NCBI GenBank assembly: GCA_050178385.1
Contig: JBFXGD010000027.1
Location: 1 to 29,296, forward strand
Direction of reading: 5' to 3'
Length of the DNA: 29,296 bases
DNA from: Calditrichaceae bacterium
GTDB lineage: Bacteria; Calditrichota; Calditrichia; Calditrichales; JBFXGD01
Positions 1,133-29,296 of this stretch are shown one piece after another (within the stretch, counting starts at the first letter, position 1; each line of letters opens with the position of its first letter). The notes under the pieces are model-generated. The model did no database searches. It was not told the DNA's origin and saw only the letters and a list, made by a program, of their open reading frames with translations. Both the position numbers and the translations under genes were made by a program.

Positions 1133-1152
1133 TCTAATAGTTGAGGAACCAG

Positions 1153-1977
1153 ATGCAGTTTCTAATCAGTTTTATGAACACGATTTTGCCATTGCTTTAT
1201 TTCGCGACGACATTTTTTTATGCCCGGTATTTTTGGCGCGAAGACAGTTCGGCGAAACGGTATGTGACACCCATGCTGCAAGTAACTGTATTAATACATT
1301 TTATTGATGTTGTGATAAGGGGGATTTATTACAAGCATTTTCCGCTGGCGACCATTTTCGAAGCTTCCACCGTTCTGGCGCTCTCTGTAGCCGCCATTTA
1401 CATGTATATTGAATCACGCATAAAGGAGAAATCTACAGGATATTTTATTCTTGTGTTCGTGTTTTTTATGCAGGTGATATCCTCGGCGTTTATAGACTTC
1501 GTCCATGTGATTCCAGAAATACTTCATGACCGTCTGTTTATTTTTCATACAAGCGCGGCCATCCTTGGATACTCTGCATTTGCTATTTCCGCGATTTACG
1601 GTTTAATGTATTTGCTGCTTACGCACGACATTAAAAGCAGCCGGTTTGGAGTCATTTACAGCCGTTTACCTTCCCTTGAAATTCTAAACGAAATGAATCT
1701 CAAGGCGGCGACAACCGGTTTCTTTTTTCTGACAATCGCCATTGTACTCGGCGAAATCTGGACAAAAAAATTATACGGCACCTTGCTTCATTTTGACTAT
1801 AAAATTTTAATTGCGATAATCACGTGGTTTATTTACGGACTTGAGATCTTTGGTAAAAAGATATTCGGATGGAGCGGAAAGCGGTTGGCGATTTTGTCAA
1901 TCAGCGGATTCGCCATTATTATATTTTCAATGATTGCCGTAAACACGTTTTTATCATCATTTCACAGATTCGATTGA
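1153..1977 (+). CDS. Cytochrome c assembly family membrane protein (CcsA/HemX-like)
   Basis: About 8 hydrophobic segments; His in LIHF and FIFHTS; RLPSLEIL motif; degenerate WWD region GEIWTKKLYGTLLHFDYK. GAGGA RBS favours ATG 1153 over TTG 1141. Directly upstream of hemA. Confidence 0.85.
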   Translation: MQFLISFMNTILPLLYFATTFFYARYFWREDSSAKRYVTPMLQVTVLIHFIDVVIRGIYYKHFPLATIFEASTVLALSVAAIYMYIESRIKEKSTGYFILVFVFFMQVISSAFIDFVHVIPEILHDRLFIFHTSAAILGYSAFAISAIYGLMYLLLTHDIKSSRFGVIYSRLPSLEILNEMNLKAATTGFFFLTIAIVLGEIWTKKLYGTLLHFDYKILIAIITWFIYGLEIFGKKIFGWSGKRLAILSISGFAIIIFSMIAVNTFLSSFHRFD

Positions 1978-1984
1978 TTAAATT

Positions 1985-3268
1985 ATGGATAAAAATATTT
2001 TTCAAATATATCTGCTTGGTCTCAACCACCGCGTAGCCACCGTTGATATTCGTGATCACGCGGCATACGCCGAGAATGAGCTTCCCGCCGCGCTTGAAAA
2101 GTTACTGAAATGTGACGGGATAGAAGAGGGATACATTCTCTCGACCTGCAACAGAACGGAAATTTATGTGCTGGCCGGGTCGTCGCCCGATGTTCGTTCG
2201 ACCCTGGAAAACTTCTTAAAAGCCACCCGCAAATCATTTGATCCCGCTGATTTTAAGGTGATGTATTTTTATGAAGGCGATGCCGCGATCGGGCACCTCT
2301 TTAAAGTCGCGGCGGGGATGGATTCAATGATTCTCGGTGAACCCCAGATCCTCGGGCAGGTTAAAGACGCTTACAGGATTGCGTCGGGTTTGGGTTCGAC
2401 AAAACTTATTTTAAATCGACTGCTTAATTTAGCGTTTACGGTTGGCAAGCGGGTGCGGACAGAGACTGCAATTGCTATGGGCGCTGTGAGTGTGGCCTTC
2501 GCCGCCGTGGAACTTGCGCAAAAGATTTTCAAAGATCTGAATAAACATAAAGTTCTGTTAATTGGTGCGGGGGAAACCGGCACACTGGCGGCGCAGCATT
2601 TGATAGAAAAGGGTGTTAAACAACTTCTCATAAGCAACAGGACATATGAAAAAGCCGCGAAGCTGGCGGATGACTTAAACGGGACTGCTGTTCCATTTGA
2701 TGAAATGCATTCAGTTTTGCCGGAAGTGGATGTGGTTATCGGGGCAACAAGCGCGCCGGATTTCATCCTGTCGGAATCAGATATCCGGGAGATTCAGGGG
2801 CGACGTGGTTCCCGCCCGCTCTTTTTGATAGATATCGCGGTGCCGCGTGATTTTGATCCAAAAATCAATCGACTTGAAAATGTATTTTTAAACGATATGG
2901 ACGGATTACAGCAAATTGTCGATAAAAATCTGGATAAACGCAGACAGGAAATCCCGGAAGCCCTGATTATCATCGATCAGGAGATATCGAATTTTACCGC
3001 GTGGAAAAAATCCCTTCAGGTGACGCCGACAATCATAGCCCTGCGCGAAAAATTGGAAGAAATACGCCGCCTGGAACTTGATAAACACAAACACCGCGTG
3101 AGTGATAAAGAACTGGAACAAATGGAAATGATTACCCGCGCGGTAATTAATAAAGTGCTGCATCTGCCTACGGTGCAACTCCGCGGATATAACAACGGAC
3201 AATTGGAAGGCCTTCTGCGCATAGACGTGGTTAGGGAAATGTTTGGACTGGAGGAAGATAATGAGTAA
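1985..3268 (+). CDS. hemA: Glutamyl-tRNA reductase
   Basis: GLNHRVA, catalytic STCNRTE, DSMILGEPQILGQVK, NADPH-binding IGAGETG, DIAVPRD. Confidence 0.98.
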   Translation: MDKNIFQIYLLGLNHRVATVDIRDHAAYAENELPAALEKLLKCDGIEEGYILSTCNRTEIYVLAGSSPDVRSTLENFLKATRKSFDPADFKVMYFYEGDAAIGHLFKVAAGMDSMILGEPQILGQVKDAYRIASGLGSTKLILNRLLNLAFTVGKRVRTETAIAMGAVSVAFAAVELAQKIFKDLNKHKVLLIGAGETGTLAAQHLIEKGVKQLLISNRTYEKAAKLADDLNGTAVPFDEMHSVLPEVDVVIGATSAPDFILSESDIREIQGRRGSRPLFLIDIAVPRDFDPKINRLENVFLNDMDGLQQIVDKNLDKRRQEIPEALIIIDQEISNFTAWKKSLQVTPTIIALREKLEEIRRLELDKHKHRVSDKELEQMEMITRAVINKVLHLPTVQLRGYNNGQLEGLLRIDVVREMFGLEEDNE

Positions 3269-4196
3269 GACGGTACGCATAGGAACACGTGATAGTGAGC
3301 TCGCGATATGGCAGACGCGCTGGGTTCGGGAAAAATTGAATGAGCTGGACCCCGTGATAAATATTGAAATTATAGAGGTTAAAACCATTGGTGACAAAAT
3401 ACTGGATACGCCTCTGTCTAAAATTGGTGACAAGGGACTTTTCACAAAGGAAATCGACCGGGCGCTGCTTGATAATGAAATAGATTTCGCGGTGCACAGC
3501 ATGAAAGATGTGCCGACAGCCATACCTGAAGAACTTACAATCGCGGCTATCACCGGAAGATGGCATGCAAATGATATTTTGATATCGAGGAATAATCTGA
3601 CAATCGAAACTCTGCCCGAGGGAGCGACGATAGCGACGGGGAGTCTTAGAAGAAAAGCGCAACTGTTAAATTACCGAAAAGATTTCAGAATTATTGACCT
3701 TAGAGGCAATCTGAATACAAGATTCAGAAAGTTTGACGAAGCGGATTGGGACGGTATGGTTCTCGCTCAGGCCGGTGTGGAGCGTTTAGGCTGGCAGGAC
3801 AGAATATCGGAACGCATTCCATTAAACATTCTTCTTCCCGCTGTCGGCCAGGGGAGTTTCGCGATTATTTGCCGAAAAAATGACAATGACACCAGGAATC
3901 TGCTAAAACCGCTTCACGATGATCATTCAGCAGCCGGGATACGCGCTGAGAGAGCCTTGCTGCATAGACTTGAGGGAGGATGCCAGGTGCCTATCGGGGC
4001 ATACGGTGAGATCGTTCAAAATCGACTGCGGTTGAAAGCATGCGTTTCAAGTCTTGACGGCGAGACACTCATTGAAGATGTAGCGGAAGGTGAGATCAAT
4101 TCGCCGGAAGAATTAGGTATATTGGTCGCGGAAAAACTGATTTCCTTGGGTGGAAAAGAAATATTGGACCGCATTATAATGGAAAACCGCGCATGA
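3261..4196 (+). CDS. hemC: Hydroxymethylbilane synthase (porphobilinogen deaminase)
   Basis: IGTRDSELAIWQ, GDKGLFTKE, VHSMKDVP, RGNLNTR, LEGGCQVP cofactor Cys. Start set at ATG 3261, overlapping the hemA end. Confidence 0.98.
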   Translation: MSKTVRIGTRDSELAIWQTRWVREKLNELDPVINIEIIEVKTIGDKILDTPLSKIGDKGLFTKEIDRALLDNEIDFAVHSMKDVPTAIPEELTIAAITGRWHANDILISRNNLTIETLPEGATIATGSLRRKAQLLNYRKDFRIIDLRGNLNTRFRKFDEADWDGMVLAQAGVERLGWQDRISERIPLNILLPAVGQGSFAIICRKNDNDTRNLLKPLHDDHSAAGIRAERALLHRLEGGCQVPIGAYGEIVQNRLRLKACVSSLDGETLIEDVAEGEINSPEELGILVAEKLISLGGKEILDRIIMENRA

Positions 4197-4852
4197 GAAA
4201 ATCAAATCCACAACTTCATAGTGAAAGGCGATGTCAGATTCTGAATATCGCGGAGGAAATGTTCGCCTCGCAGAAATTTCATGAAGTGCTGATGGATGAG
4301 GTGGCGAGAAGGGCAAATATTGCCAAAGGAACCATCTATAATTATTTCAGAAACAAAGAAGAACTTTTTCTTTCAATTATAATCAGAAAACTGGAAAATC
4401 TGTTGCACCTGTTATGCGAAAGGGTTGATCATAATACTGACGCGCTGACAACGCTCCGCAGAGTAGTAATCCATATGTACAGTTTTCTGGTAAAATATCC
4501 TGATTTTTTCAGAATCTGGTACAGGGAAAAAATCAAATTTTCCGCCGGGAGCGGCGATAAAATTGATCAGATGTATCACCAGATACGGGAATTAATGGTT
4601 CGGACTCTTGAACGATGCATCGATGAAGGAATTATTTCGCCGGATGAGAATCTGCTGTTCAAAACAGATCTGATTTTGGGTATCATTGACGTGGCGGTAA
4701 TTAGAGCACAAAATTTGACCGTGGATGAACAGCGGGCTGAAAGGGTGCTTATGTTTGAATTCATCCTGAATGCAATCGGTACGCCACACGCGCTTACTCT
4801 GCATGAAATTGGGATCGATCTGCCCATAAAAGAGGCGGTTATTAATGAGTAG
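4193..4852 (+). CDS. TetR/AcrR family transcriptional regulator
   Basis: N-terminal HTH ILNIAEEMFASQKFHEVLMDEVARRANIAKGTIYNYFRNKEELF. ATGA overlap with hemC and 8-nt overlap with hemD. Confidence 0.93.
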   Translation: MRKSNPQLHSERRCQILNIAEEMFASQKFHEVLMDEVARRANIAKGTIYNYFRNKEELFLSIIIRKLENLLHLLCERVDHNTDALTTLRRVVIHMYSFLVKYPDFFRIWYREKIKFSAGSGDKIDQMYHQIRELMVRTLERCIDEGIISPDENLLFKTDLILGIIDVAVIRAQNLTVDEQRAERVLMFEFILNAIGTPHALTLHEIGIDLPIKEAVINE

Positions 4853-5648
4853 CTTAAGCGGGAAAAAAATATTAATCTGCCGGGGCAGGGAGCAGTCCCT
4901 GGAACTGGATGCAGGGCTCCGGGAAAAAGGGTCCGATCCTGTTTTTTTTGCTCCGTTTACCGTGGATATAATTGATCCCAATAAGGAAATGGCCATAGAA
5001 CGGGAATTGAAAAATCTTGACCGTTATGACCTGATTCTTTTTGGAAGCCCGAACGGTGTGTCCTCTTTCCGTCACTACATGAACCGGTATCTTATATCAG
5101 ATAAAGTAATGAATAGGATTGGTGTGGGTATTGTTGGAAACAAAGCGGCAAAGAGATTTGAAAGATTGTTCCCGAAAACAGATATCAGGTATAAAGCTTC
5201 ATCATTAAAAGACCTCCTCGAAAAAACCGGTAAATCCTCGGATGACAAAAAAATAAATATATTGAATCTAACCAGTGAGCAGTCCTTATTAAATATTCAG
5301 TTGGAGATCCCTGATAATATATCACTGGTACGTCTGCCCATTTACAAAACAGTCGCAAATACGGAGATAGATGAAAACAGTGTCGGGGAAATAAATAAAT
5401 CAAAATTTGATATGGTTGTTTTCAGCAGTCCGAGTTCTTATGACTATTTTGTCGGGCAGATAGGAAAAGCCTTTCTGATGTCCGGAATTTCAGTGGCGGC
5501 ATTTGGCAAAACAACAGCCGGTCACATTAAGAAAAACGGGTTTAAGGCGGATGTGGTCCCTGTCAACGCGGAAACAGATAATTTAATCATGGCGATTGAA
5601 GCATTTTTTGACAGAATAAATTCCGGGGTGATCACTGCCGGCGGATAA
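4845..5648 (+). CDS. hemD: Uroporphyrinogen-III synthase
   Basis: LSGKKILICR, ILFGSPNGV, IYKT, VFSSPSS, AAFGKTTA; operon context. Confidence 0.9.
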   Translation: MSSLSGKKILICRGREQSLELDAGLREKGSDPVFFAPFTVDIIDPNKEMAIERELKNLDRYDLILFGSPNGVSSFRHYMNRYLISDKVMNRIGVGIVGNKAAKRFERLFPKTDIRYKASSLKDLLEKTGKSSDDKKINILNLTSEQSLLNIQLEIPDNISLVRLPIYKTVANTEIDENSVGEINKSKFDMVVFSSPSSYDYFVGQIGKAFLMSGISVAAFGKTTAGHIKKNGFKADVVPVNAETDNLIMAIEAFFDRINSGVITAGG

Positions 5649-5719
5649 TATCGGTCAGTTGAATATTCAAAAATAAAGCGTAAACATATATTTCGAAAGA
5701 CGGGAGTTAGGACATAATT

Positions 5720-6754
5720 ATGGATGAAAATACAAATCACCTCTTTATAAAGGCATGCTTAGGGCAGCCTGTTGAACGCACACCGGTCTGGATGATGCGT
5801 CAGGCGGGTCGTTATTTGCCGGAATACCGGCAGATCAGACAAAAATATAATTTTACGGGTATGTATAAAACACCGGATGTGGCGACCGAAGTCACCCTTC
5901 AGCCGGTGGATATTCTGGGAGTCGACGCGGCTATCCTTTTCTCGGATATTCTTGTTGTTCCAGAAGCGATGGGGATGGAACTGCATTTTATAGAAGAGAA
6001 GGGTCCTCAGTTTCCGGATCCCCTGCGGTCCGAAAAACAGATCCGCCAATTACCGGCCATCAACGTGGAAAATGAACTCGGCTATGTTTTGCAGGCCATC
6101 AGAAATATCAGGCAGGAATTGAACAATCGCGTTCCTCTGATCGGATTCAGCGGAGCTCCCTGGACGCTTGCCACTTATATGATAGAAGGAAGCGGCTCCA
6201 GAAATTATAAATATATCAAAACATTACGATTCGGGAATCCGGCGTTATTGCATGAATTGCTGGAAAAAGTGACGATCACGGTAATCGACTATTGTAAAGC
6301 GCAGATTGAAAACGGGGTTCAGGCGGTACAGTTGTTTGACAGCTGGGCAGGCATGCTGGACGAAGAAGGATTTTACGAATTTGCGCTCCCTTATGTGCAA
6401 AGAATCATTAAGGAAATACGCAAACCCGGAGTTCCCATCATTTATTTCGCAAAAGGGGCAATGGCATGGCTCGATAAACTAAGCCTTTCCGGCGCTGATG
6501 TACTGGGACTTGACTGGACAATTGATCCTGCCAGAGCTGTGGAATTAATCAATAATAAAACCGCGCTGCAGGGCAATCTTGATCCTACTGCTCTTTACGC
6601 GCCGCCCGCTGAAATCCGCGGTCATGTCAAAAAAATGCTAAAAGGATTTAGTGGCGCGGCCGGTCATGTCGCCAACCTGGGGCATGGAATTTTACCGGAT
6701 ATACCGGTGGATCACGCGCGGGCATTCATAGACGCTGTAAAAGAGGAAAGTTGA
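5720..6754 (+). CDS. hemE: Uroporphyrinogen decarboxylase
   Basis: PVWMMRQAGRYLPEY, AAILFSDIL, GFSGAPWTLATY, QGNLDP, NLGHGI. Confidence 0.98.
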   Translation: MDENTNHLFIKACLGQPVERTPVWMMRQAGRYLPEYRQIRQKYNFTGMYKTPDVATEVTLQPVDILGVDAAILFSDILVVPEAMGMELHFIEEKGPQFPDPLRSEKQIRQLPAINVENELGYVLQAIRNIRQELNNRVPLIGFSGAPWTLATYMIEGSGSRNYKYIKTLRFGNPALLHELLEKVTITVIDYCKAQIENGVQAVQLFDSWAGMLDEEGFYEFALPYVQRIIKEIRKPGVPIIYFAKGAMAWLDKLSLSGADVLGLDWTIDPARAVELINNKTALQGNLDPTALYAPPAEIRGHVKKMLKGFSGAAGHVANLGHGILPDIPVDHARAFIDAVKEES

Positions 6755-6818
6755 GATTTCCGGGAATCATTAGTCAGGGACTGATAATCCATTTATTTAA
6801 CCAAAAGAGATCAATATT

Positions 6819-8216
6819 ATGAATAAATCACTAAACTTAGATATCGCCCTCGAACTTCTGAAAAAATATGACCGTCCGGGGCCGAGATATACAAGCTACC
6901 CAACCGCTCCGCATTTTCATGAGGGATTCGGCTCAAGGGAGTTTGAAGAGGAAATTATACGGACAAATGAGGTTGGCCAAAACGGCGATTTATCTCTCTA
7001 TTTTCATTTACCGTTTTGTCAATCGCTGTGCTATTATTGCGCCTGCAATGTGATTATTACTCACAGTTCAGATCGTAAGGCCTCGTATGTCGATTATCTT
7101 AAAAGAGAAATAGATGCTGTAAGCAGCAGGGTAAATCCAAACAGAAAAGTTGTTCAGCTCCATTGGGGCGGGGGAACGCCGACATATCTTTCAGCGGAGC
7201 AGATAGAAGATATCGCTTTGTACATACGCGATCATTTCAATTTTGCGTCCGATGCCGAAGTAAGTATTGAAGTCGATCCAAGAGCGCTGACTCCGGCTCA
7301 TCTGCCGGTTTTGAGAAAGGTAGGTTTTAACAGAATCAGTATGGGGGTTCAGGATTTTGATCCCAAGGTTCAGGAAGCGGTTAACCGCATACAGCCGGAA
7401 GAAATGACGCGCGGGGTCATTCAGGAAAGCCGGGATCTCGGTTTTGATTCGATTAATGTGGACCTGATTTATGGTCTGCCATATCAGTCGGTCGATACTT
7501 TTGCCAAATCAGTAGATAAAATTATCGAAATTTCACCGGATCGTCTGGCGGTTTTTAATTATGCGCATGTGCCCTGGATGAAAAAGCATCAGAACATAAT
7601 TAAACCGGAAACGCTTCCTTCAGCCGGAGAAAAATTGTCCATTTTGAAGATGGTGATCGAAAAGCTGACCGGCGCCGGTTATGTGATGATCGGTATGGAT
7701 CATTTTGCAAAGCCGGGTGATGAACTTAGCGTCGCTCTTCGGGAAAAAACGTTATACAGAAACTTTCAGGGATATACTACCCGGGCAGGGGCAGAAGTTT
7801 ACGCCATGGGTATCACTTCTATCAGCCAATTGCACAATGTTTACGCGCAGAATGTCAAGACAACTAAAGAATATGAAACAATGATTGACAGCGGAAAACT
7901 ACCCGTTTCTCTGGGTTATCGTCTTAATGATGACGATCAGGTGAGAAGGCATGTCATTACAGAACTTATGTGTAATAATGTTGTTGAAAAAGCGGAAGTG
8001 AATAAAAAGTATGGAATCGATTTTGATTCTTACTTTGCCGATTCTATAGCTCAGTTGGATGAATTTGTCAATGACGGGCTTGTAAGTCTGCAGCCGGACC
8101 GGATTCAGGTTCATGAAAATGGCCGTCTGGTGGTGCGGAATATCGCGATGGCTTTTGACGCGTATCTTGAAGCGGATCGCCAGAAACAAAAGCCAATTTA
8201 CTCCAGAACAGTTTAA
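6819..8216 (+). CDS. hemN: Oxygen-independent coproporphyrinogen III oxidase (radical SAM)
   Basis: KYDRPGPRYTSYPTA, HLPFCQSLCYYCACN (CxxxCxxC), HWGGGTPT, IGMDHFA, RNFQGY, C-terminal YSRTV. These are true HemN features rather than HemW. Confidence 0.97.
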   Translation: MNKSLNLDIALELLKKYDRPGPRYTSYPTAPHFHEGFGSREFEEEIIRTNEVGQNGDLSLYFHLPFCQSLCYYCACNVIITHSSDRKASYVDYLKREIDAVSSRVNPNRKVVQLHWGGGTPTYLSAEQIEDIALYIRDHFNFASDAEVSIEVDPRALTPAHLPVLRKVGFNRISMGVQDFDPKVQEAVNRIQPEEMTRGVIQESRDLGFDSINVDLIYGLPYQSVDTFAKSVDKIIEISPDRLAVFNYAHVPWMKKHQNIIKPETLPSAGEKLSILKMVIEKLTGAGYVMIGMDHFAKPGDELSVALREKTLYRNFQGYTTRAGAEVYAMGITSISQLHNVYAQNVKTTKEYETMIDSGKLPVSLGYRLNDDDQVRRHVITELMCNNVVEKAEVNKKYGIDFDSYFADSIAQLDEFVNDGLVSLQPDRIQVHENGRLVVRNIAMAFDAYLEADRQKQKPIYSRTV

Positions 8217-8232
8217 TCAGGTGGATAGGATT

Positions 8233-9675
8233 ATGCCAAAGATTGAAACGATCGATACTGTCATTGTAGGAGCCGGGATATCGGGTCTTACTACTGCGCA
8301 CAATTTGGTGAAAAAGGGAATTAAGGTAAAAATTCTTGAAAAAAACAGCAGAGCCGGCGGCTCAATCCGCACAGAGGAGAAAGACGGATTCCTGGTAGAA
8401 TACGGACCCAACAGCGCGCTCGAAACCACTCCGCTGCTAGGTGAACTTTTCAAAGAACTGAAAATAGATCATCAGTTGATATATGCCAGTGAAAAATCCA
8501 ATAATCGATATATTGTACGTGGCGGGAAACTCCAGGCTTTACCAATGAAAGCGCTGGATTTTTTAAAAAGCAGTCTTTTCTCAACAAACGCAAAGTTAAG
8601 ACTCTTTAAAGAACCGTTTATCGCCCCATCACCTGCAGAAACCCGTGAAACCCTGGCTGAGTTTGTGGAGCGGCGTCTTGGGAAAGAATTTCTGGATTAT
8701 GCGATTGATCCGTTTGTGGCCGGTGTTTTTGCCGGATTACCGGAAAAATTATGTGTTCAGAGCGCGTTCCCGAAGCTTTATGAAGTGGAACAAAAATATG
8801 GGAGCCTGATAAAAGGGACCATAAGGGGCGCGCGTGAAAGAAAAAAAAGCAAGGAAACCTCCAAACAGCATGCGAAAATGTTTTCATTTGAAGACGGATT
8901 ACAGACTGTTATTAATGCTTTGGTAAAAGAAATTGGAGACAATCTTGTTGCTGATGCGGAAATAACAGGGATATCAAAGAGTAAGGATGGCGGTTACGAA
9001 GTTTCATACCGGAATGAAGGAGAAGAGATCTTAATCCGGACAAAATCGGTTTTATTGACCGTACCCGCTCATGTGTACGAAAAACTTCCAATCCATTTTG
9101 AATTAACTCCGGGAGATTTTTTCAAGACAATTCCTTATCCGCCCGTAACAATGGTTTTCTTTGGATACAAAAAGAAACCGGAAAATGTCAATCTTGACGG
9201 ATTTGGATTTTTAATTCCGAGAAAGGAAAACAAAAAAATTCTTGGCTCCATCTGGAGTTCGACGATTTTTCCGAATCGCGCGCCGGAAGGAGGGGCGGCA
9301 TTTACGACCTTTGTCGGCGGCAGCCGCCAGCCGGAGAACGCGATGCTGAGTGAAGACAAGATTACTGAAATGGTGGAAGAAGATTTTAAAAGCCTGTTGG
9401 GTATCAGCCAAAAGCCGGATGTTGTGGTGATTAAACGATGGGAAAAGGCAATACCTCAGTATAATCTTGAGCATATTGAAATGATCGGCTCGGTTGAAAA
9501 ATTTGAACAAATGAATCCGGGTATGTTTATTTCCGGTAATTTCAGAGGCGGTATTTCAGTAGCCGATTGTGTAAAGCAAGCAGATGCGATGAGTGGGGCC
9601 GTTTCGGAGTTTTTTGAGAAAAAAGTCAAAAAAATCAATTATCAAAACGCGTCAAAAACAGTAACAGATAAATAA
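8233..9675 (+). CDS. hemY: FAD-dependent proto/coproporphyrinogen oxidase (HemY family)
   Basis: IVGAGISGL dinucleotide fold, RAGGSIRT, EYGPNS, GFGFLIP, RWEKAIPQY, GISVADCV. Start moved to ATG 8233 (AGGA upstream) because the track start at 8113 overlaps hemN. Confidence 0.93.
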   Translation: MPKIETIDTVIVGAGISGLTTAHNLVKKGIKVKILEKNSRAGGSIRTEEKDGFLVEYGPNSALETTPLLGELFKELKIDHQLIYASEKSNNRYIVRGGKLQALPMKALDFLKSSLFSTNAKLRLFKEPFIAPSPAETRETLAEFVERRLGKEFLDYAIDPFVAGVFAGLPEKLCVQSAFPKLYEVEQKYGSLIKGTIRGARERKKSKETSKQHAKMFSFEDGLQTVINALVKEIGDNLVADAEITGISKSKDGGYEVSYRNEGEEILIRTKSVLLTVPAHVYEKLPIHFELTPGDFFKTIPYPPVTMVFFGYKKKPENVNLDGFGFLIPRKENKKILGSIWSSTIFPNRAPEGGAAFTTFVGGSRQPENAMLSEDKITEMVEEDFKSLLGISQKPDVVVIKRWEKAIPQYNLEHIEMIGSVEKFEQMNPGMFISGNFRGGISVADCVKQADAMSGAVSEFFEKKVKKINYQNASKTVTDK

Positions 9676-9722
9676 ATCTTATAATACGGTTTATCAGCCG
9701 ATAAAATTATGGAGTACAGACG

Positions 9723-10700
9723 ATGTTCAAACCTTATTACAGACCACGGCGTCTGCGCAGGAATCCGCAAATACGAAATCTTGTCCGTGAGACGATCTTA
9801 ACCCCGGATGATCTGATTCTGCCATTATTTGTAGCAGCGGGTAAAGATATCAAAAAACCGATCAGCAGCATGCCGGGACATTTTCAGCTTTCTCTTGAAC
9901 ATCTTGTCAGAGAAGTACAAACCATACGGGAAAAGGGAATCCAATCAATTATTTTATTCGGTATTCCCGAACACAAAGATGCCTTTGGCACAGATGCCAC
10001 AAGTGATGATGGTATCATCGCGAAAGCAATAAGTGAAGTAAAAAAAGCCGTTCCGGATATGTATGTTATTTCGGATGTATGTTTCTGTGAATATACCGAT
10101 CACGGCCACTGCGGCGCGCTGGTAGGTCATGATGTTGATAACGATGCCACATTGGAAATGCTTCAGAAACAGGTGCTGGTTCAGGCAAAGCATGGAGTAG
10201 ATATGGTAGCTCCTTCGGGCATGATGGACGGAATGGTAGGAGCCATCCGTCAGGCGCTTGATGGTGAGGGATATATCAATATTCCGATCATGAGCTACGC
10301 GGCTAAATACGCGTCCGGATTTTATGGCCCGTTCCGGGAAGCGGCGGAATCGACTCCGGCGTTTGGAGACCGCAGCACCTATCAGATGGATCCGGCGAAT
10401 GCCGATGAGGCGATGCGTGAAGTCGCGCTTGATGTTGAAGAGGGAGCCGACATCGTTATGGTTAAACCGGCCATGCCTTACCTGGATCTTATCCAACGAA
10501 TCAAAACGGAGTTTAGAATGCCCACAGCCGCGTATCAGGTATCCGGTGAATTTGCCATGCTTAAGGCGGCTGCCGAAAAAGGCTGGTTGGATCATGATCG
10601 TGTGATGATGGAATCACTTACATCGATAAAACGCGCCGGCGCGGATATGATAATCACTTATTTCGCCAAAGAAGTCGTTGATGTGCTGGGGAGGAAGTAG
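9723..10700 (+). CDS. hemB: Porphobilinogen synthase (ALA dehydratase)
   Basis: RPRRLR, Zn-binding [40 protein letters not shown]. Confidence 0.98.
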
Positions 10701-10731
10701 GAAGTTGGAAGTAAGAAGTGGGAATTAAGAG

Positions 10732-10784
10732 CGTTAAGAGAAAAGAGTGTAAGAGTTGAGAATTTGGGCACGATGCTCGTGCCC
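10732..10784 (+). repeat. 53-bp direct repeat copy A, ending in hairpin GGGCACGA-TGC-TCGTGCCC
   Basis: Ungapped manual alignment with 11115-11167 gives 44/53 identities. Confidence 0.85.
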
Positions 10785-11007
10785 TAAGTAGGAAGTGGGA
10801 AGTAAGAAGTTTAAGAAAAAAGATAAAAGAAAAAAGAAAAAAGAGTTAAGAGTAGGGGCGTCTCAATCCGGGAACGCGATGTCATAGTCAACCGCGGTGA
10901 AACCGGTTAATCTACCCGTATGTCATGCCGCAGGCATCTTTGGCTACCTTGGAAGGATGTAGAAAAAAAGATTCTTTGGGGCGAATTTTCTGTTCAGCAG
11001 GAGACTG

Positions 11008-11078
11008 ACCCTCCCCTCGATCCCCTCCCTTATGCAAAAGGGAGGGGAAGGGCATGATTTATCAGGACCGGGGAGGGT
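11008..11078. repeat. Nested inverted repeat (REP-like element)
   Basis: Outer arms ACCCTCCCC (11008-11016) / GGGGAGGGT (11070-11078). Inner 11-bp stem TCCCCTCCCTT (11021-11031) / AAGGGAGGGGA (11038-11048) with loop ATGCAA. Confidence 0.85.
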
Positions 11079-11114
11079 TAGAAGAAATCGAAAGTAAGAA
11101 AAGAAAAGTAAGAA

Positions 11115-11167
11115 CGTTAAGAGTTAAGCGTGTAAGAGTTAAGATTAGGGGCGCGATGCTCGCGCCC
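11115..11167 (+). repeat. 53-bp direct repeat copy B, ending in hairpin GGGCGCGA-TGC-TCGCGCCC
   Basis: Same hairpin as copy A with a compensatory A-T to G-C pair change. Confidence 0.85.
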
Positions 11168-11321
11168 AAGAAAAAAGAGTTAAGAAAAGAAGGTTCAACT
11201 ATTGTGTTGTTGAAATCTTCGGAACGATAATTTACCTGTTATCTAAAACCGGAATTTTGATCAGATTTTGAATGCTGGCAAACAGTCTTTGGAAAATATA
11301 AATGTAATAACGGAGTTTTGC

Positions 11322-12611
11322 ATGTTATCACAGGATAAAAGTAGAAAATTATTTGAAAGATCACAAAAAGTGACTCCCGGTGGTGTAAACTCACCGGTTC
11401 GCGCTTTTAAATCGGTTGAAGGAACCCCCGTTTATTTCTCTCACGGGAAAGGTTCCCGTACGTTCGATGTGGACGGTAACGAATACATTGATTATGTGGG
11501 ATCATGGGGCCCGCTCATTCTTGGATACTCGGATGCAAGAATTATTTCGGCCGTAAAAGATGAAGCAGAAAAGGCGACAAGTTTTGGAGCGCCGACCGAG
11601 CTGGAAATTGAACTGGCGGAACTCATCACAAAAATAATGCCCTCTGTTGAAATGGTACGAATGGTAAACTCTGGCACAGAAGCCACAATGAGCGCCGTCC
11701 GTTTAGCGAGGGGATATACAGGCCGTGATAAAATCATCAAATTCAGCGGCTGCTATCATGGACATAGCGACAGTTTTCTTATTCAGGCCGGATCGGGTAT
11801 GACAACTCTCGGCACTCCTAATAGTCCGGGTGTGACTGCTTCTACAGCTGAAGACACGCTGATCGCACGTTATAATGATCTTGGTTCTGTTAAGGAGTGG
11901 ATTTCAAAGTTTCCGGATCAGATCGCGGCAATCATCGTAGAACCGGTTGCCGGTAATATGGGGGTTATTCCTCCTGCGGAAGGATTTCTTGAAGGGTTAA
12001 GGAAAGTTACAAGTGATAATGGAATAGTATTGATTTTTGATGAAGTGATGACCGGTTTCAGAGTCGCCAAAGGCGGCGCGCAGGAAGTCTATAATATAAA
12101 ACCGGATTTGACAACTCTTGGTAAGATCATCGGCGGCGGAATGCCGGTGGGCGCATACGGCGGAAAAAAAGAAATTATGGAGCAGATATCCCCGTCAGGT
12201 CCCGTTTATCAGGCAGGAACGCTTTCAGGGAATCCGCTTGCCATGAGAGCCGGTCTGGAAACGTTAAGGATTCTAAATGAGCCCGGTTTCTATGAGAAAC
12301 TGGAGGAAAAAGCCAAACTATTGGACAACGGGATCCGTGAAAATCTAAAACGTCTCGGAATGCCGCTGTATCAGACCAGAGTGGGTTCAATGGGGTGCCT
12401 GTTTTTTAATACTGAAATGGTACACGATTATGACAGCGCCGTCCGTTCAAATACAAAAAAATACGCCAAATATTTTTGGAATATGCTCGAGGAAGGCGTA
12501 TATCTGGCGCCTTCTCAGTTTGAAGCATTCTTTATCTCCGCGGCGCATTCGGAAAACGACATTAAAAAGACCGTTGAAGCAAATTACCGCGCGTTAAAAA
12601 ATGTGCTTTAG
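11322..12611 (+). CDS. hemL: Glutamate-1-semialdehyde 2,1-aminomutase
   Basis: [39 protein letters not shown] lysine in [24 protein letters not shown] favours ATG 11322. Confidence 0.98.
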
Positions 12612-15031: not shown

Positions 15032-15409
15032 TCACGATTCATCAATCAATTCCAGAACCATATCTTTTAGCTGAGTGATTGTAAAAGGCTTTTTCAAAAA
15101 ACGCTGCCGGGTGCTCATGGGAGTGTCGGCAAATGACTGGTCGTTCTCAAATCCGGACATAAAGATCGCGAGAGACTCCGGTAAAAATTTTTCAATCTGT
15201 CTGTAAGTTTCTTCACCTGACATATTCGGCATATACATATCGATTAGCAACAAACCAATCTCATCTTTGTGTTTGGAAACAATTTCAATCGCTTCCATTC
15301 CGTTGTTTGCCTGGTAAGAGGTAATATCCATCAGAGACAACACTTCCGCAATAATCTCCCGGAGCGCTTCTTCATCATCAACAATCAATGCTTTTTTTGT
15401 GTCAAGCAA
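15032..15409 (-). CDS. Single-domain response regulator (REC only)
   Basis: ALIVDDE, phosphoacceptor in LLIDMYMPNMSG, MSG, FLKKPF; no output domain. Confidence 0.92.
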   Translation of the reverse strand: MLDTKKALIVDDEEALREIIAEVLSLMDITSYQANNGMEAIEIVSKHKDEIGLLLIDMYMPNMSGEETYRQIEKFLPESLAIFMSGFENDQSFADTPMSTRQRFLKKPFTITQLKDMVLELIDES

Positions 15410-15557: not shown

Positions 15558-17717
15558 CTATTTCTCGCTCATAGTTGTGACACCATCCCAATCCGGGCCG
15601 GGACTTGTAAATTTGAAATCAATGCATCTTTTCCTGTACATCTGGGACGGAGAATCTTCGGGTACTAATTTGAGACAATATTCAAACAGATCTATGGCCT
15701 CTTTCCAATTTTGTTGCCTGTATTCTATGATCCCTTTATGATATAATTCAAGCATTTCAAGGTAACTTTGGTTCAGAGACGCGCTTCGTTCGGCGATTAA
15801 TTCGAAAACTTCAATCGGTTTTTGTTTTCCTTTTACTCTTATCAGATCCAGTGGACGGGTAAAAAATTCATCTTTCACAATGTCATTTGTGAATTCGCTG
15901 ATCATGATTTCAGTTCCGTAGAATTTGTTCGCCCCTTCCAGACGGGATCCTAAATTTACATGATCACCCATGACGGTATAGTCAAATACATTTTTTGAAC
16001 CCATGTTTCCAACGATAACTTCACCTGTATTAATCCCGATTCTGGCTCGCAGCAAAGGTCTGTTATCCTTTTTCCAGTCAGCGCGCAATTTTTCAAGCTG
16101 GCGCTGCATTTCGAGAGCCGCAATGCAGCCGGCTCTGGCATGATTGTCATAAAATACAGGCACACCAAATTCGGCCATGATGGCGTCGCCTTCATATTTA
16201 TCTATAATACCGTCATTCTTCAAAACTATATCTGTCATAGATGTCAGATATTCGTTGAGCAAAGAAACGAGTTGCCGCGGGGAGAGTTTTTCAGAAATGG
16301 TTGTGAATCCCACCACATCTGAGAACAAAACAGTCACAACGCGTTCTTCGCCGCCGAGTGTTAACGTTTCGGGATGATTGATGATCTCCTGTACAACTTT
16401 TTCGGGAACATAATGCGCAAATGCGCCGCGCAGGACCCGTTTATCGCGCTGAGACAACAGATACTGATAAACCGTATTTCCGACAAAGCTGAAGAGTATG
16501 ACAAGTACCGGGCTGACAACCTGTAAAAAAATATTGAACTGTTTAAAAACGTAAACTGAGATAAGTACATACCCGATTGTGATACCGATGGTTACAAACA
16601 AACCCCATGTTGTATGCACAAAGCGCGTAATAAAAAAGATACCGGCCGCCAAAAAGAACATTATCAGAAGACTGATGATTAAGGAAGGTGTTTTCAGATA
16701 ATTATTTTCAAGAATGGCAAGTATGGCATTTGCATGAATCTCAACTCCGGGCATTTCAGTTTTGACCTGTACTCCTTCGGCTGAATAATGCTCGAGAAAA
16801 GGTGTTGGAAAATTATCATGCAGTTCATGCATCGTTGATCCGATGAGTACAATTTTATCCTTAAATTTACCTGAATATTTTAATCCCGCGGGAATGCCAA
16901 GTTCAGGATCACCGGGATCATCAAATGAATCAATATCATACTCATCCCTAAGATCAAAATCTTCATCATCAAGAATGCTGTCAAAGGAATAATACGGGAA
17001 TGTAAACGCCGGTCCTTTATAATTTATCAGAAAGCTGTTTGGGTCAAATTTAGGGATCTGATAGCCGGGCAGATAGAAAAAATTTCTATCTGTTTTTAAG
17101 GCAGTGGAATTGTTTGTTCCTTCCTTCGCCCGGATCATCTGCGCGGCAAAAGATGGCAATAAAGAGTCATTGTATTGTTGACCGACAAGGTAACGCCTGT
17201 AGAAACCGTCAATATCAGCTTCAATAGCCACCAGGCCCCAGGGTGTGTTACCGGATAAAAATTTCTCGTAAGGCGGGATGATAGTCGTGTATGTATAGTT
17301 CTGAGATGTCTGAAGCAGTTTGCCCACCAGAACCACATTGTTATATGAAGAAAGGACACGGGTAAGTTCATCATCCTGTTCCGGTCCGTATTTATCAGGC
17401 TGATCAAAAATGACATCAACTCCGATTGCGGCGGCTCCGGCTTCTTCAAGATTTTCAATGACATGGGCAAAATATGATCTCGGCCATGGCCAGCGGTGCG
17501 GTGTTGATTCATCTGACTGATCATCGATCCCAACAATTACTACCGGGCTGTCCTCAAGAGATTCAGGCCCGCGCAGCGCGAAGCGGAGATCCAGAAGCTT
17601 TAGTTCAAGTGTCTGAAACGTCGCGGTATAACTTAAAAGAAAAGCCAGAGAAACCGACATTATTATAACAAGAAGAAAAATAAAAGGATTATAATTAGAC
17701 ATAGATGTTTTCATCAT
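15558..17717 (-). CDS. CHASE2-domain membrane-bound class III adenylate cyclase with C-terminal TPR-like tail
   Basis: N-terminal TM; CHASE2 motifs (IVGIDD, WPWPR, GVDVIF, DIDGFYRR, MPGVEIHAN); 3 TMs; cyclase motifs LFSDVVGFT, DKYEGDAIMA, GNMGS, YTVMGDHVNLGSRLEG, VKGK. The Lys and Thr specificity residues indicate ATP as substrate. Confidence 0.95.
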   Translation of the reverse strand: MMKTSMSNYNPFIFLLVIIMSVSLAFLLSYTATFQTLELKLLDLRFALRGPESLEDSPVVIVGIDDQSDESTPHRWPWPRSYFAHVIENLEEAGAAAIGVDVIFDQPDKYGPEQDDELTRVLSSYNNVVLVGKLLQTSQNYTYTTIIPPYEKFLSGNTPWGLVAIEADIDGFYRRYLVGQQYNDSLLPSFAAQMIRAKEGTNNSTALKTDRNFFYLPGYQIPKFDPNSFLINYKGPAFTFPYYSFDSILDDEDFDLRDEYDIDSFDDPGDPELGIPAGLKYSGKFKDKIVLIGSTMHELHDNFPTPFLEHYSAEGVQVKTEMPGVEIHANAILAILENNYLKTPSLIISLLIMFFLAAGIFFITRFVHTTWGLFVTIGITIGYVLISVYVFKQFNIFLQVVSPVLVILFSFVGNTVYQYLLSQRDKRVLRGAFAHYVPEKVVQEIINHPETLTLGGEERVVTVLFSDVVGFTTISEKLSPRQLVSLLNEYLTSMTDIVLKNDGIIDKYEGDAIMAEFGVPVFYDNHARAGCIAALEMQRQLEKLRADWKKDNRPLLRARIGINTGEVIVGNMGSKNVFDYTVMGDHVNLGSRLEGANKFYGTEIMISEFTNDIVKDEFFTRPLDLIRVKGKQKPIEVFELIAERSASLNQSYLEMLELYHKGIIEYRQQNWKEAIDLFEYCLKLVPEDSPSQMYRKRCIDFKFTSPGPDWDGVTTMSEK

Positions 17718-28276: not shown

Positions 28277-28305
28277 AATTTAAGATTTTTTAGAGGAGAA
28301 TACAA
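28277..28305 (-). promoter_or_regulatory. Possible sigma70 promoter of the nucleoside salvage operon
   Basis: Minus strand TTGTAT (28305-28300), 17 nt, TAAATT (28282-28277), upstream of cdd. The region is AT-rich, so a chance match is possible. Confidence 0.4.
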
Positions 28306-28381
28306 AAGGATATTCATAAAGAAGGCACCTCCTATGCCCATTAAACCTTTTGTTGAAAAAGTGATAAATTAGTTTCTGGTT

Positions 28382-28825
28382 TTAAAAGGGAAGATCATCC
28401 GATTCATGTCCTTCATCCGCGGACGGTTTTTCTGATACCTTGCTGTCATCAGCAGCAGGTTCATCCTGATATTTGGATTCACTATCACCTTTTGAGCCAA
28501 GAAGCTGAAGGTCAAGGGCTATTATCTCTGTTTTGTACTTTTTTTGGCCTTGCTGGTCTTCCCAACTGCTGGTTTGAAGACGTCCCTCTAAATAGACTAA
28601 TTTGCCTTTTTTTAAATACTCGCCGACAAATTCAGCCGTTTTTCCAAATGTGACGATGTTGTGCCATTCGGTTTTATCCGTCCATGAACCTTCGGCATCC
28701 TTCTGTCTGTGATTTGTTGCCACAGAAAAGCTCGCGATAGCGGTTCCGCCCGGCGAATACCGCATATCGGGGTCTTGTCCAAGCCGACCGATGATAATAG
28801 CTTTGTTCACAGTTCCTCGTGACAT
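28382..28825 (-). CDS. ssb: Single-stranded DNA-binding protein
   Basis: VNKAIIIGRLGQDP, TEWHNIV, EGRLQT, acidic C-terminal DDLPF; GGAGG RBS. Confidence 0.98.
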   Translation of the reverse strand: MSRGTVNKAIIIGRLGQDPDMRYSPGGTAIASFSVATNHRQKDAEGSWTDKTEWHNIVTFGKTAEFVGEYLKKGKLVYLEGRLQTSSWEDQQGQKKYKTEIIALDLQLLGSKGDSESKYQDEPAADDSKVSEKPSADEGHESDDLPF

Positions 28826-28867
28826 GAGTCCTCCAATGTTGGTGTAAGTTTGAAAGAAAGGTTGTTT

Positions 28868-28912
28868 AGAAAAATAGCCTCAGAACAGAATAAGACGAGT
28901 TCAGAGGCTATT
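28868..28912 (-). terminator. Hairpin plus U-tract downstream of the small peptide genes
   Basis: Minus strand AATAGCCTCtGAAC...GTTCtGAGGCTATT followed by further Ts. Confidence 0.6.
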
Positions 28913-28977
28913 AAAGTTAAAAAAAATATCAAAAAATACAAGTTTAAATATTTAAAATGTCATTAACTAATTGTTCC

Positions 28978-29133
28978 TTAAGGTTTCGGACGTGGTGGCG
29001 GTGGTAAAGGAACGATAGTTGCGAATTCGGCGCCGGATCTTGGGCTGGCATCTGTGGTAGCCGTACTTAGTATCGTCATAAATATGGCCGCTGCGAAAAC
29101 GAAAGTTACGATTATTGCTGCAATCTTTTTCAT
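28978..29133 (-). CDS. Small secreted proline-rich peptide precursor, copy 1 (51 aa)
   Basis: Manual translation MKKIAAIIVTFVFAAAIFMTILSTATTDASPRSGAEFATIVPLPPPPRPKP*. AAGGAG RBS (29146-29141) 7 nt before the ATG; Sec-type signal peptide; an adjacent paralog differs mostly at synonymous sites. Below the ORF track's apparent 60-aa cutoff. Confidence 0.88.
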   Translation of the reverse strand: MKKIAAIIVTFVFAAAIFMTILSTATTDASPRSGAEFATIVPLPPPPRPKP

Positions 29134-29187
29134 GTGATAACTCCTTAATGCAATGTTTTTTGTGATTCTTTCAATTAACCGCTTTGA

Positions 29188-29296
29188 TTACGGTTTTGGG
29201 CGCGGGGGCTGAGGTAATGGAACAATAGTAGCGAATTCAGCGCCGGATCTTGGGCTTCCGTTTGTTGATGCGACGTCCACGGCAGTAAAGACGATT
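29188..29296 (-). CDS. Small proline-rich peptide precursor, copy 2 (5' end beyond the right edge)
   Basis: Manual translation ...IVFTAVDVASTNGSPRSGAEFATIVPLPQPPRPKP*. The last 22 aa are 21/22 identical to copy 1. Confidence 0.85.
   Translation of the reverse strand, partial: IVFTAVDVASTNGSPRSGAEFATIVPLPQPPRPKP

Follow-up and report, generated by a model that had tools for sequence, protein, structure and literature searches.

What do two tandem small open reading frames (ORFs) at the end of a Calditrichaceae contig encode, and are they the peptide-signalling genes that they resemble at first sight? The stretch of DNA analyzed here (the window) is the entire contig C27 (29,296 nt) of the genome assembly G000, which amounts to 3.9 Mb in 320 contigs with a GC content of 41.8%. 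A preliminary description of the window had reported two co-oriented small ORFs 54 nt apart that share a 22-residue core, and had interpreted them as exported signalling peptides or RiPP-like precursors. Both were present in the ORF list on the minus strand, and their translations matched letter for letter. Copy 1 consists of MKK, a hydrophobic helix, a linker, and the stretch F-A-T-I-V-P-L-P-P-P-P-R-P-K-P. The coordinates of these genes and of the other features mentioned in the text are collected in Table 1.

Table 1. Features of the array, of its surroundings, and of the remainder of the window (positions refer to the window unless another contig is named)
Feature	Position	Strand	Basis or remark
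Copy 1, 51-aa small-protein gene	28978..29133, stop included	minus	ORF list, ATG start; profile match E 3.4e-20
Copy 2, last 35 codons and stop	29188..>29296	minus	ORF list; contig end cuts gene
Copy 2 in full, 51 aa, ATG	L001 (contig C15) 105..260		213-nt overlap, bridging contig in X1
Spacer, copy 2 stop to copy 1 start, 54 nt	29134..29187	minus	read from sequence
Shine-Dalgarno AAGGAG of copy 1, 7 nt before ATG	29141..29146	minus	read from sequence
T/G variant, Gln/Pro in copy 2	29210 (C15 position 127)	minus	overlap mismatch, X1 reads
Intrinsic-terminator-like hairpin and UUUUCU	28868..28911 (hairpin 28874..28911)	minus	fold, dG -15.7 kcal/mol
ssb, single-strand DNA-binding protein	28382..28825	minus	Pfam SSB E 4.4e-39
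119-nt tandem repeat	L001 (C15) 370-609, outside window		110-350 nt upstream of copy 2 ATG
SppA, 573 aa	23561-25282	minus	Peptidase_S49 E 3.4e-73
ORF, 367 aa	20868-21971	minus	no Pfam match at E<=1e-5
ORF, 794 aa	17781-20165	minus	no Pfam match at E<=1e-5
CHASE2-adenylate/guanylate cyclase	15558-17717		
Stand-alone receiver	15032-15409		
Haem biosynthesis cluster	1141-12611	plus	
Gap of ~1.3 kb in haem cluster	6755-8112		without ORF of at least 90 aa
TetR-family gene	4193-4852		interrupts haem cluster

The first point to settle was the extent of the array, which the contig end interrupts within copy 2. The last 213 nt of C27 are the first 213 nt of contig C15, with a sole mismatch at 29210, and in the public run X1 one contig covers positions 29120-29296 and then continues with the letters of C15. 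The overlap and this bridging contig together place C27 and C15 next to each other. Since G (Pro) was the only letter read at 29210 in X1, the Gln codon is a variant of the G000 assembly, and the other allele makes the core identical at 22 of 22 residues. In C15, copy 2 was found to possess its own ATG, an AAGGAG 7 nt upstream of it (the same as in copy 1), and a hydrophobic N-terminus, which rules out that it is the tail of a larger protein. Going upstream from copy 2, one finds, in order, a 119-nt tandem DNA repeat, genes for DUF2085 and DUF4199 membrane proteins on the opposite strand, and prfA; beyond prfA, C15 carries an ORF that we take to be DUF1385-like, rpmE, rho, and folC. Names of C15 neighbors given without a Pfam scan rest on reading of their translations. 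The array had been expected to continue past the right edge; instead it comprises two copies only. A third copy hidden at the contig break was considered and rejected, as both C15 and the X1 contig run into unique upstream sequence. A profile search of G000 retrieved this one array only. As for the break itself, it coincides with the T/G strain variant exactly 127 nt into C15, and it resembles a k=127 assembly bubble more than a collapsed repeat.

The remainder of the window contains a haem biosynthesis cluster encoding glutamyl-tRNA reductase, porphobilinogen deaminase, HemD, URO-D, an amine-oxidase-type oxidase, ALAD, and a class-III aminotransferase. Elsewhere, the 794-aa and 367-aa ORFs flank a FecR-like gene and lie beside the cyclase and receiver genes.

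Codon comparisons indicate that both ORFs are real protein-coding genes under strong purifying selection. Across the 22 core codons the paralogues differ by 10 synonymous and 0-1 non-synonymous changes (CCG/CAG at 29210, depending on the allele), which reproduces the count of ten plus one made previously and attributes the single replacement to the assembly variant. The genome G001, from the same genus, has two genes of the copy-1 type and a single gene of the copy-2 type, three in all. Copy 1 of G000 differs from the two copy-1-type orthologues by 16 and 22 synonymous changes with 0 non-synonymous ones, bearing out the proposal that selection acts on the peptide. Between copy 2 and its orthologue the corresponding figures are 12 synonymous and 3 non-synonymous. 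Run X1 also contains another, related strain, in which ssb and the array carry many synonymous differences: all nine differences listed between this co-occurring strain and copy 1 fall on third codon positions, and 19 more were counted across the stretch. The segment upstream of the core had been described as diverged. This holds for the paralogues of G000, which have an identical core but N-termini that disagree at 15 of 29 residues. It does not hold for orthologues: between these, the 29 N-terminal codons have accumulated 9-12 synonymous changes and 0 non-synonymous ones, a constraint as strong as that on the core. A Shine-Dalgarno motif was located 5-7 nt from the ATG in 19 of the 22 genomic copies of relatives, and AAGGAG-N7-ATG occurs in all five copies of the genus. 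Taken together, these features far exceed what chance would produce, and the frame is apparently translated, or at least selected as though translated. Among the public sequencing runs listed as containing the stretch, none was an RNA run.

A comparison of the two species also bears on how the copies evolve. Only 2 synonymous differences (pS 0.11) separate the core of the copy-1 type from that of the copy-2 type in G001, compared with 10 in G000 (pS 0.55); the N-terminal halves of the two types are saturated in both genomes (pS 0.86-0.95). When the G001 locus (L003, 1082-1653) is set against the window, these values appear to be signs of gene conversion between copies.

Searches for relatives yielded a family with a narrow range. 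Neither copy 1 nor any of 25 members matched a Pfam or NCBIfam model above threshold (sub-threshold matches only), and the literature searched by Calditrichota small proteins and by motif strings contained no mention of the family, in agreement with its having been unrecognizable at first reading. An exhaustive phmmer search against 1.84 billion representatives returned eight proteins at E<=0.001. A profile of 25 members, searched against 5.8 billion clusters, returned 61 clusters at E<=0.01, all of 51-82 aa, and wherever the source gives a name it is only "hypothetical protein" from Calditrichaeota MAGs. The search across the genome and its relatives that had been suggested at the outset was run with a profile of 42 members. 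It detected the family in 21 of the 86 Calditrichota genomes, at 1-4 tandem copies per genome. By family, matches were found in 1 of 1 genomes of f1 (plus our own genome), 9 of 10 of f2, 1 of 1 of f4, 8 of 10 of f6, and 1 of 17 of f5 (a weak match), and in none of the 26 genomes of f3 (one complete genome included), the 4 of f7, or the 16 of f8. Two copies are present in G000, three in G001, four in G002, and two to four in G013, G017, G044, and G046; one family carrier is a "Calditrichia bacterium" MAG. No longer or fused forms occurred among 7999 scored candidates, which is weak evidence, no relative was detected in viral contigs, and the best score in the protein atlas (0.80, to unnamed clusters) was at shuffle level. 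The family is restricted to part of Calditrichota, lacks a curated model, and is new to annotation; the kind itself, a small exported or single-pass protein family overlooked by annotation, is familiar. With a fixed syntenic site, no viral relative, and a single array in G000, its inheritance is vertical and non-mobile.

An alignment of 92 unique sequences provided the consensus. It opens with M1, K2, and K3, followed by a hydrophobic segment with F13 (88%), I17 (77%), N23 (59%), and a small residue (S/A/T) at positions 16 and 20. After a variable linker (positions 26-36) comes the motif Y37 (91%), A38, S/T39, I40, V/I41, P42 (90%), I/L43, P44-P46 (80-86%), two variable positions, and P49 (86%). 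The C-terminal tail is variable and charged, being RPKP in our own genus and Lys-rich in f2, and in a large subfamily it ends in two basic residues, Gly, and usually Cys. A homodimer structure prediction for copy 1 with the family alignment scored 0.03, where the mark is 0.42.

We then asked which genes accompany the array. Within the order, ssb is located directly downstream and on the same strand in 9 of 9 loci from nine genomes, and prfA is on the upstream side in 8 of 9, directly so in 7; in G001 and in our own genome two opposite-strand genes are inserted between prfA and the array. The syntenic block reads folC-rho-rpmE-prfA-[array]-ssb-cdd-udk-tdk-nupC-sppA. In G010 (f3), which has no family member there, prfA is followed by a 370-nt gap and ssb-cdd-udk, and no remnant ORF was found in that prfA-ssb gap. 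Among the matches listed in a subfamily-alignment search of genome and metagenome contigs were two loci of the Gly-Cys-ending subfamily, namely L051, a "Calditrichia bacterium" MAG that matches the f6 genome G050 in sequence, and L052, a metagenome contig. Both have array-ssb-cdd, continued by udk-tdk in L051, so the adjacency to ssb spans two orders. The link to ssb is not obligatory, as arrays in five other f6 genomes, which are more divergent and have 2-4 copies, adjoin hflX instead (5 of 5 loci, convergent in 4). Other neighbors in these f6 loci were a hybrid histidine kinase upstream of the array (2 of 5), IS genes (2 of 5), and sodA (1 of 5). A cognate receptor, peptidase, or modifying enzyme had been anticipated nearby; beside the arrays of the nine order loci and the five f6 loci, no conserved receptor (TPR protein or sensor kinase), peptidase, exporter/transporter, or modifying enzyme was found. 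The peptidase SppA is encoded 3.7 kb downstream in the same co-oriented syntenic block, a proximity that is probably coincidence since the block persists in a genome without the family.

Between the array and ssb lies a hairpin of 12 pairs, in runs of 8 and 4, which a pattern scan missed because of its 12-nt loop. It starts 66 nt past the stop of copy 1, and the element ends 48 nt before the ssb ATG. Nine of the ten loci from the order have an equivalent hairpin after the final copy (dG -15.7 to -19.7), and within the order the distance from the last array stop to the hairpin is 53-99 nt; the hairpins of L051 and L052 are weaker (-9.5 and -11.6). Out of 12 loci examined, the ssb start could be located by pattern in nine, and in all nine the U-run is 27-48 nt from the ssb ATG, Shine-Dalgarno motif included, a distance too short for ssb to have a promoter of its own behind the hairpin. 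Judging from this spacing, ssb is probably transcribed by read-through of the hairpin or from a promoter lying before it. Folding revealed no alternative pairing with the hairpin arms that would make a translation-controlled attenuator. Promoter scans for sigma-70 were at shuffle level with a consensus that may not be that of the host phylum; for the same reason, the lack of an antisense promoter-like site on the plus strand of 28300-29296 is a weak test. By eye, no sigma-54 type -24/-12 element was seen upstream of copy 2, and Rfam searches of 28300-29296 and of C15 1-1200 returned nothing relevant.

The 119-nt repeat upstream of copy 2 has 3 units in G001 and, in G000, 2 units that are 80% alike. 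It occurs nowhere else in our own genome, was not found in 13 loci of other genera searched, and has neither an Rfam match nor a significant RNA fold (z -0.81). The region upstream of copy 2 is 88% identical between the two species, while the synonymous sites of the adjacent ORFs differ by 30-57%. The repeat may be a set of regulator-binding sites for the array promoter.

Where, then, does the protein end up? Among family members the best 19-residue Kyte-Doolittle window has a median of 2.52 and the uncharged run a median of 19 residues, and an AF2 model placed a helix at residues 2-28 with a mean pLDDT of 80.7 (93-97 over the first 20 residues). Together with the positive N-terminus, this hydrophobicity and the modeled helix point to membrane targeting, with the C-terminal part predicted to lie outside the cytoplasm. 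The export-type N-terminus previously noticed is thereby upheld as a prediction for both copies, each of which has its own start, ribosome-binding site, and hydrophobic N-terminus. Whether the helix is cleaved or kept, the Tyr/Pro-rich motif is predicted to end outside the cytoplasm. A profile search of the PDB gave eight matches, all at E >= 0.79 and seven of them on N-terminal export signals, and the sub-threshold NCBIfam similarities, including those to Phr, NprX, Spy, and Asr, likewise fall on N-terminal export signals. A lipoprotein was rejected, as no Cys follows the hydrophobic segment.

Retention of the helix as an anchor and its removal by signal peptidase appear evenly balanced. On the one hand, conservation is periodic at 90-100 degrees, along one helical face (F13, 16, I17, and 20), with 234 of 10,000 permutations reaching the observed value; the N-terminal constraint between orthologues described above also favors retention, and past the core no alignment position has a conserved small pair at (-3,-1), the best reaching 46%. 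On the other hand, the layout fits an ordinary n-h-c signal peptide of 22-25 residues, some small-residue (-3,-1) site exists in 84 of 92 members, and divergent f6 copies carry sites of the A-S-A / G-S-A type. The divergence of the paralogues at 15 of 29 N-terminal residues around an identical core is, moreover, the pattern that a disposable signal peptide would show.

The explanation that we favor, and to which we give an even chance of being correct, is that the array gives rise to small envelope proteins, abundant and particular to this lineage, which dock onto a partner in the envelope through their polyproline segment. The genes would encode a Calditrichota-restricted family of small (51-73 aa) envelope proteins, in which the basic MKK and the hydrophobic helix would send the protein to the inner membrane and leave its N-terminus on the cytoplasmic side. 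The motif [YF]-A-[ST]-I-[IV]-P-[IL]-P-P-P-x-x-P and the short charged tail would thereby be placed outside the cytoplasm, and the rigid polyproline stretch would most likely dock onto an envelope or periplasmic partner. The array may form the promoter-proximal part of a transcription unit that the hairpin and U-run, 27-48 nt before ssb, would end. Expression of ssb is then probably by read-through, and since ssb is essential and abundant, such read-through would imply that the small proteins are made at least as strongly. Copy number (1-4) presumably changes via tandem duplication accompanied by gene conversion.

Several of the same observations can be read differently. Sec-exported peptides of ~22-35 residues, cleaved by signal peptidase and serving as diffusible signals or as Pro-rich antimicrobial or effector peptides, are in our judgment unlikely. 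Such peptides would account for an n-h-c layout and a length that cleavable signal peptides typically have, for the possible (-3,-1) sites and the A-S-A/G-S-A sites, for the sub-threshold matches to the signal regions of Phr, NprX, Spy, and Asr, for paralogues with an identical core and differing N-termini, and for the hybrid histidine kinase upstream of two f6 arrays. However, no receptor, Opp-type importer, exporter, peptidase, or modifying enzyme is conserved in the 9 + 5 loci; between orthologues the N-terminus is held as constant as the core; the possible cleavage sites do not share a fixed position; the C-terminal part is cationic in some subfamilies but not consistently so; and such peptides would need to cross an outer membrane. 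The operon geometry with an essential housekeeping gene would also suggest constitutive rather than density-regulated expression. The initial proposal of exported signalling or RiPP-like precursors is thus retained as regards the export-type N-terminus and not upheld as regards a pheromone or RiPP cassette, which the neighbors do not support. A bolder version, to which we assign little probability, postulates a new class of abundant Sec-exported Pro-rich peptides of a diderm phylum, released to the periplasm or medium with their synthesis hard-wired to the ssb operon; there they could be, for example, signals, protease-resistant inhibitors or decoys, or Pro-rich antimicrobials. In a related bold reading, the invariant PPP would make the output of the array and read-through into ssb a gauge of EF-P or proline-tRNA capacity.

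Two further explanations concern the small size and the position of the genes. P-P-P is an EF-P-dependent ribosome stall motif, and the proteins might accordingly be cis-acting leader or arrest peptides in which a polyproline stall, modulated by membrane targeting, tunes hairpin read-through into ssb. The place of the array directly upstream of ssb with the hairpin and U-run in between, and the translation factors prfA and hflX as neighbors, are what such a role would lead one to expect. Fujiwara et al. (2024, PMC10987492) list four criteria for monitoring substrates: (i) an ORF upstream of secA, secDF, or yidC; (ii) an N-terminal signal or TM; (iii) a conserved C-terminal sequence; and (iv) a spacer of >30 residues from the localisation signal to the end of the motif. 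Our family displays the second and third of these features, but its arrays are not upstream of sec or yidC genes, and only ~18-25 residues separate the helix end (24-28) from P46-P49. Moreover, the stop precedes the hairpin by 53-99 nt and the fold offers no alternative pairing to the hairpin arms, the presence of 1-4 copies, each with a strong Shine-Dalgarno motif, is unlike a leader, the convergent f6 arrays (4 of 5 loci) have no downstream gene to regulate, and G010 keeps prfA-ssb without the family, so that we regard this role as highly improbable. Tandem small membrane peptides resembling type I toxins and held in check by antisense RNAs seem very unlikely to us. The family does share features used in a published search for such toxins, which include a length of <70 aa, a TM region, a polar or charged C-terminus, and tandem repeats (Fozo et al. 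2010, PMC2887945): it has <70 aa, one predicted TM, a polar or charged C-terminus, tandem repeats in one intergenic region, a lineage-restricted range, and no horizontal spread. Against this, 19 of 22 copies have a near-consensus, well-spaced Shine-Dalgarno motif, the geometry would imply co-transcription with the essential ssb and thus genes that are not silent, the conserved and predictedly extracytoplasmic Tyr/Pro motif is unlike a simple charged tail, and the ~54-nt spacers are too short for a separate antitoxin gene. An antisense promoter-like site is likewise missing from the plus strand, which counts for little as the sigma-70 pattern may not fit the phylum. The remaining probability belongs to an explanation outside those listed.

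Should the abundance that the operon geometry suggests prove real, these proteins could count as a major envelope component peculiar to the lineage, and a defined polyproline ligand would offer a handle for finding the partner. The genes are strongly selected yet invisible to current annotation, in a phylum that is poorly studied, and the array keeps a fixed place before an essential gene across two orders while its copy number varies. On the practical side, the analysis provides an HMM-ready family definition and corrects the expectation of a pheromone cassette.

How the family relates to known systems can be stated for four of them. With the RRNPP pro-peptides of Firmicutes (Phr/NprX/PapR), the comparison drawn in the preliminary description, it shares the small size of the precursor, an N-terminal export segment that is basic and hydrophobic, and conservation of the C-terminal part. 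This likeness goes no further than the first ~21-38 residues, which match export-signal regions below threshold. Specifically, TIGR04429 Phr_nterm aligned with residues 1-21 in 10 of 25 members below threshold (best E 0.00091; the one listed score, 13.6 bits, compares with a cut-off of 25), NprX had a best E of 0.041, and copy 1 and copy 2 themselves matched neither. Nor was a cognate TPR receptor of the Rap/NprR/PlcR/PrgX type found beside the arrays of our own locus, the nine order loci, or the f6 loci. Our family differs from RRNPP pro-peptides in belonging to an outer-membrane phylum, in having a Tyr/Pro motif of ~13 residues as opposed to a pheromone of 5-8 residues, in occupying a housekeeping locus upstream of ssb, and in its strongly constrained N-terminus. 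Small single-helix proteins such as MgrB, AcrZ, KdpF, and CydX have ~30-60 aa and one TM helix with a conserved packing face, are often missed by annotation, and are single-copy and usually encoded beside the genes of their partner. By contrast, our family forms tandem arrays with no partner gene nearby, has a polyproline tail, and showed no similarity to any curated Pfam or NCBIfam model. Type I toxins (Ldr, Ibs) resemble it in their single hydrophobic helix, tandem copies in one intergenic region, and narrow vertical distribution; the corresponding features here are 51-73 aa, a Kyte-Doolittle median of 2.52, an AF2 helix at 2-28, and charged tails. They are unlike it in that our family has a strong, exposed Shine-Dalgarno motif, probable co-transcription with an essential gene, a conserved polyproline motif in its putative ectodomain, and no room for an antisense RNA gene. 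Finally, SecM, MifM, VemP, and ApdA/ApdP are also encoded by small ORFs of narrow range upstream of another gene, with an N-terminal localisation signal and a Pro-containing C-terminal motif. In these Sec/YidC arrest peptides the downstream gene is sec or yidC, whereas here it is ssb or none, and our family combines a shorter spacer with multiple tandem copies and a motif of the form hydrophobic-P-x-PPP rather than a RAPP-like one.
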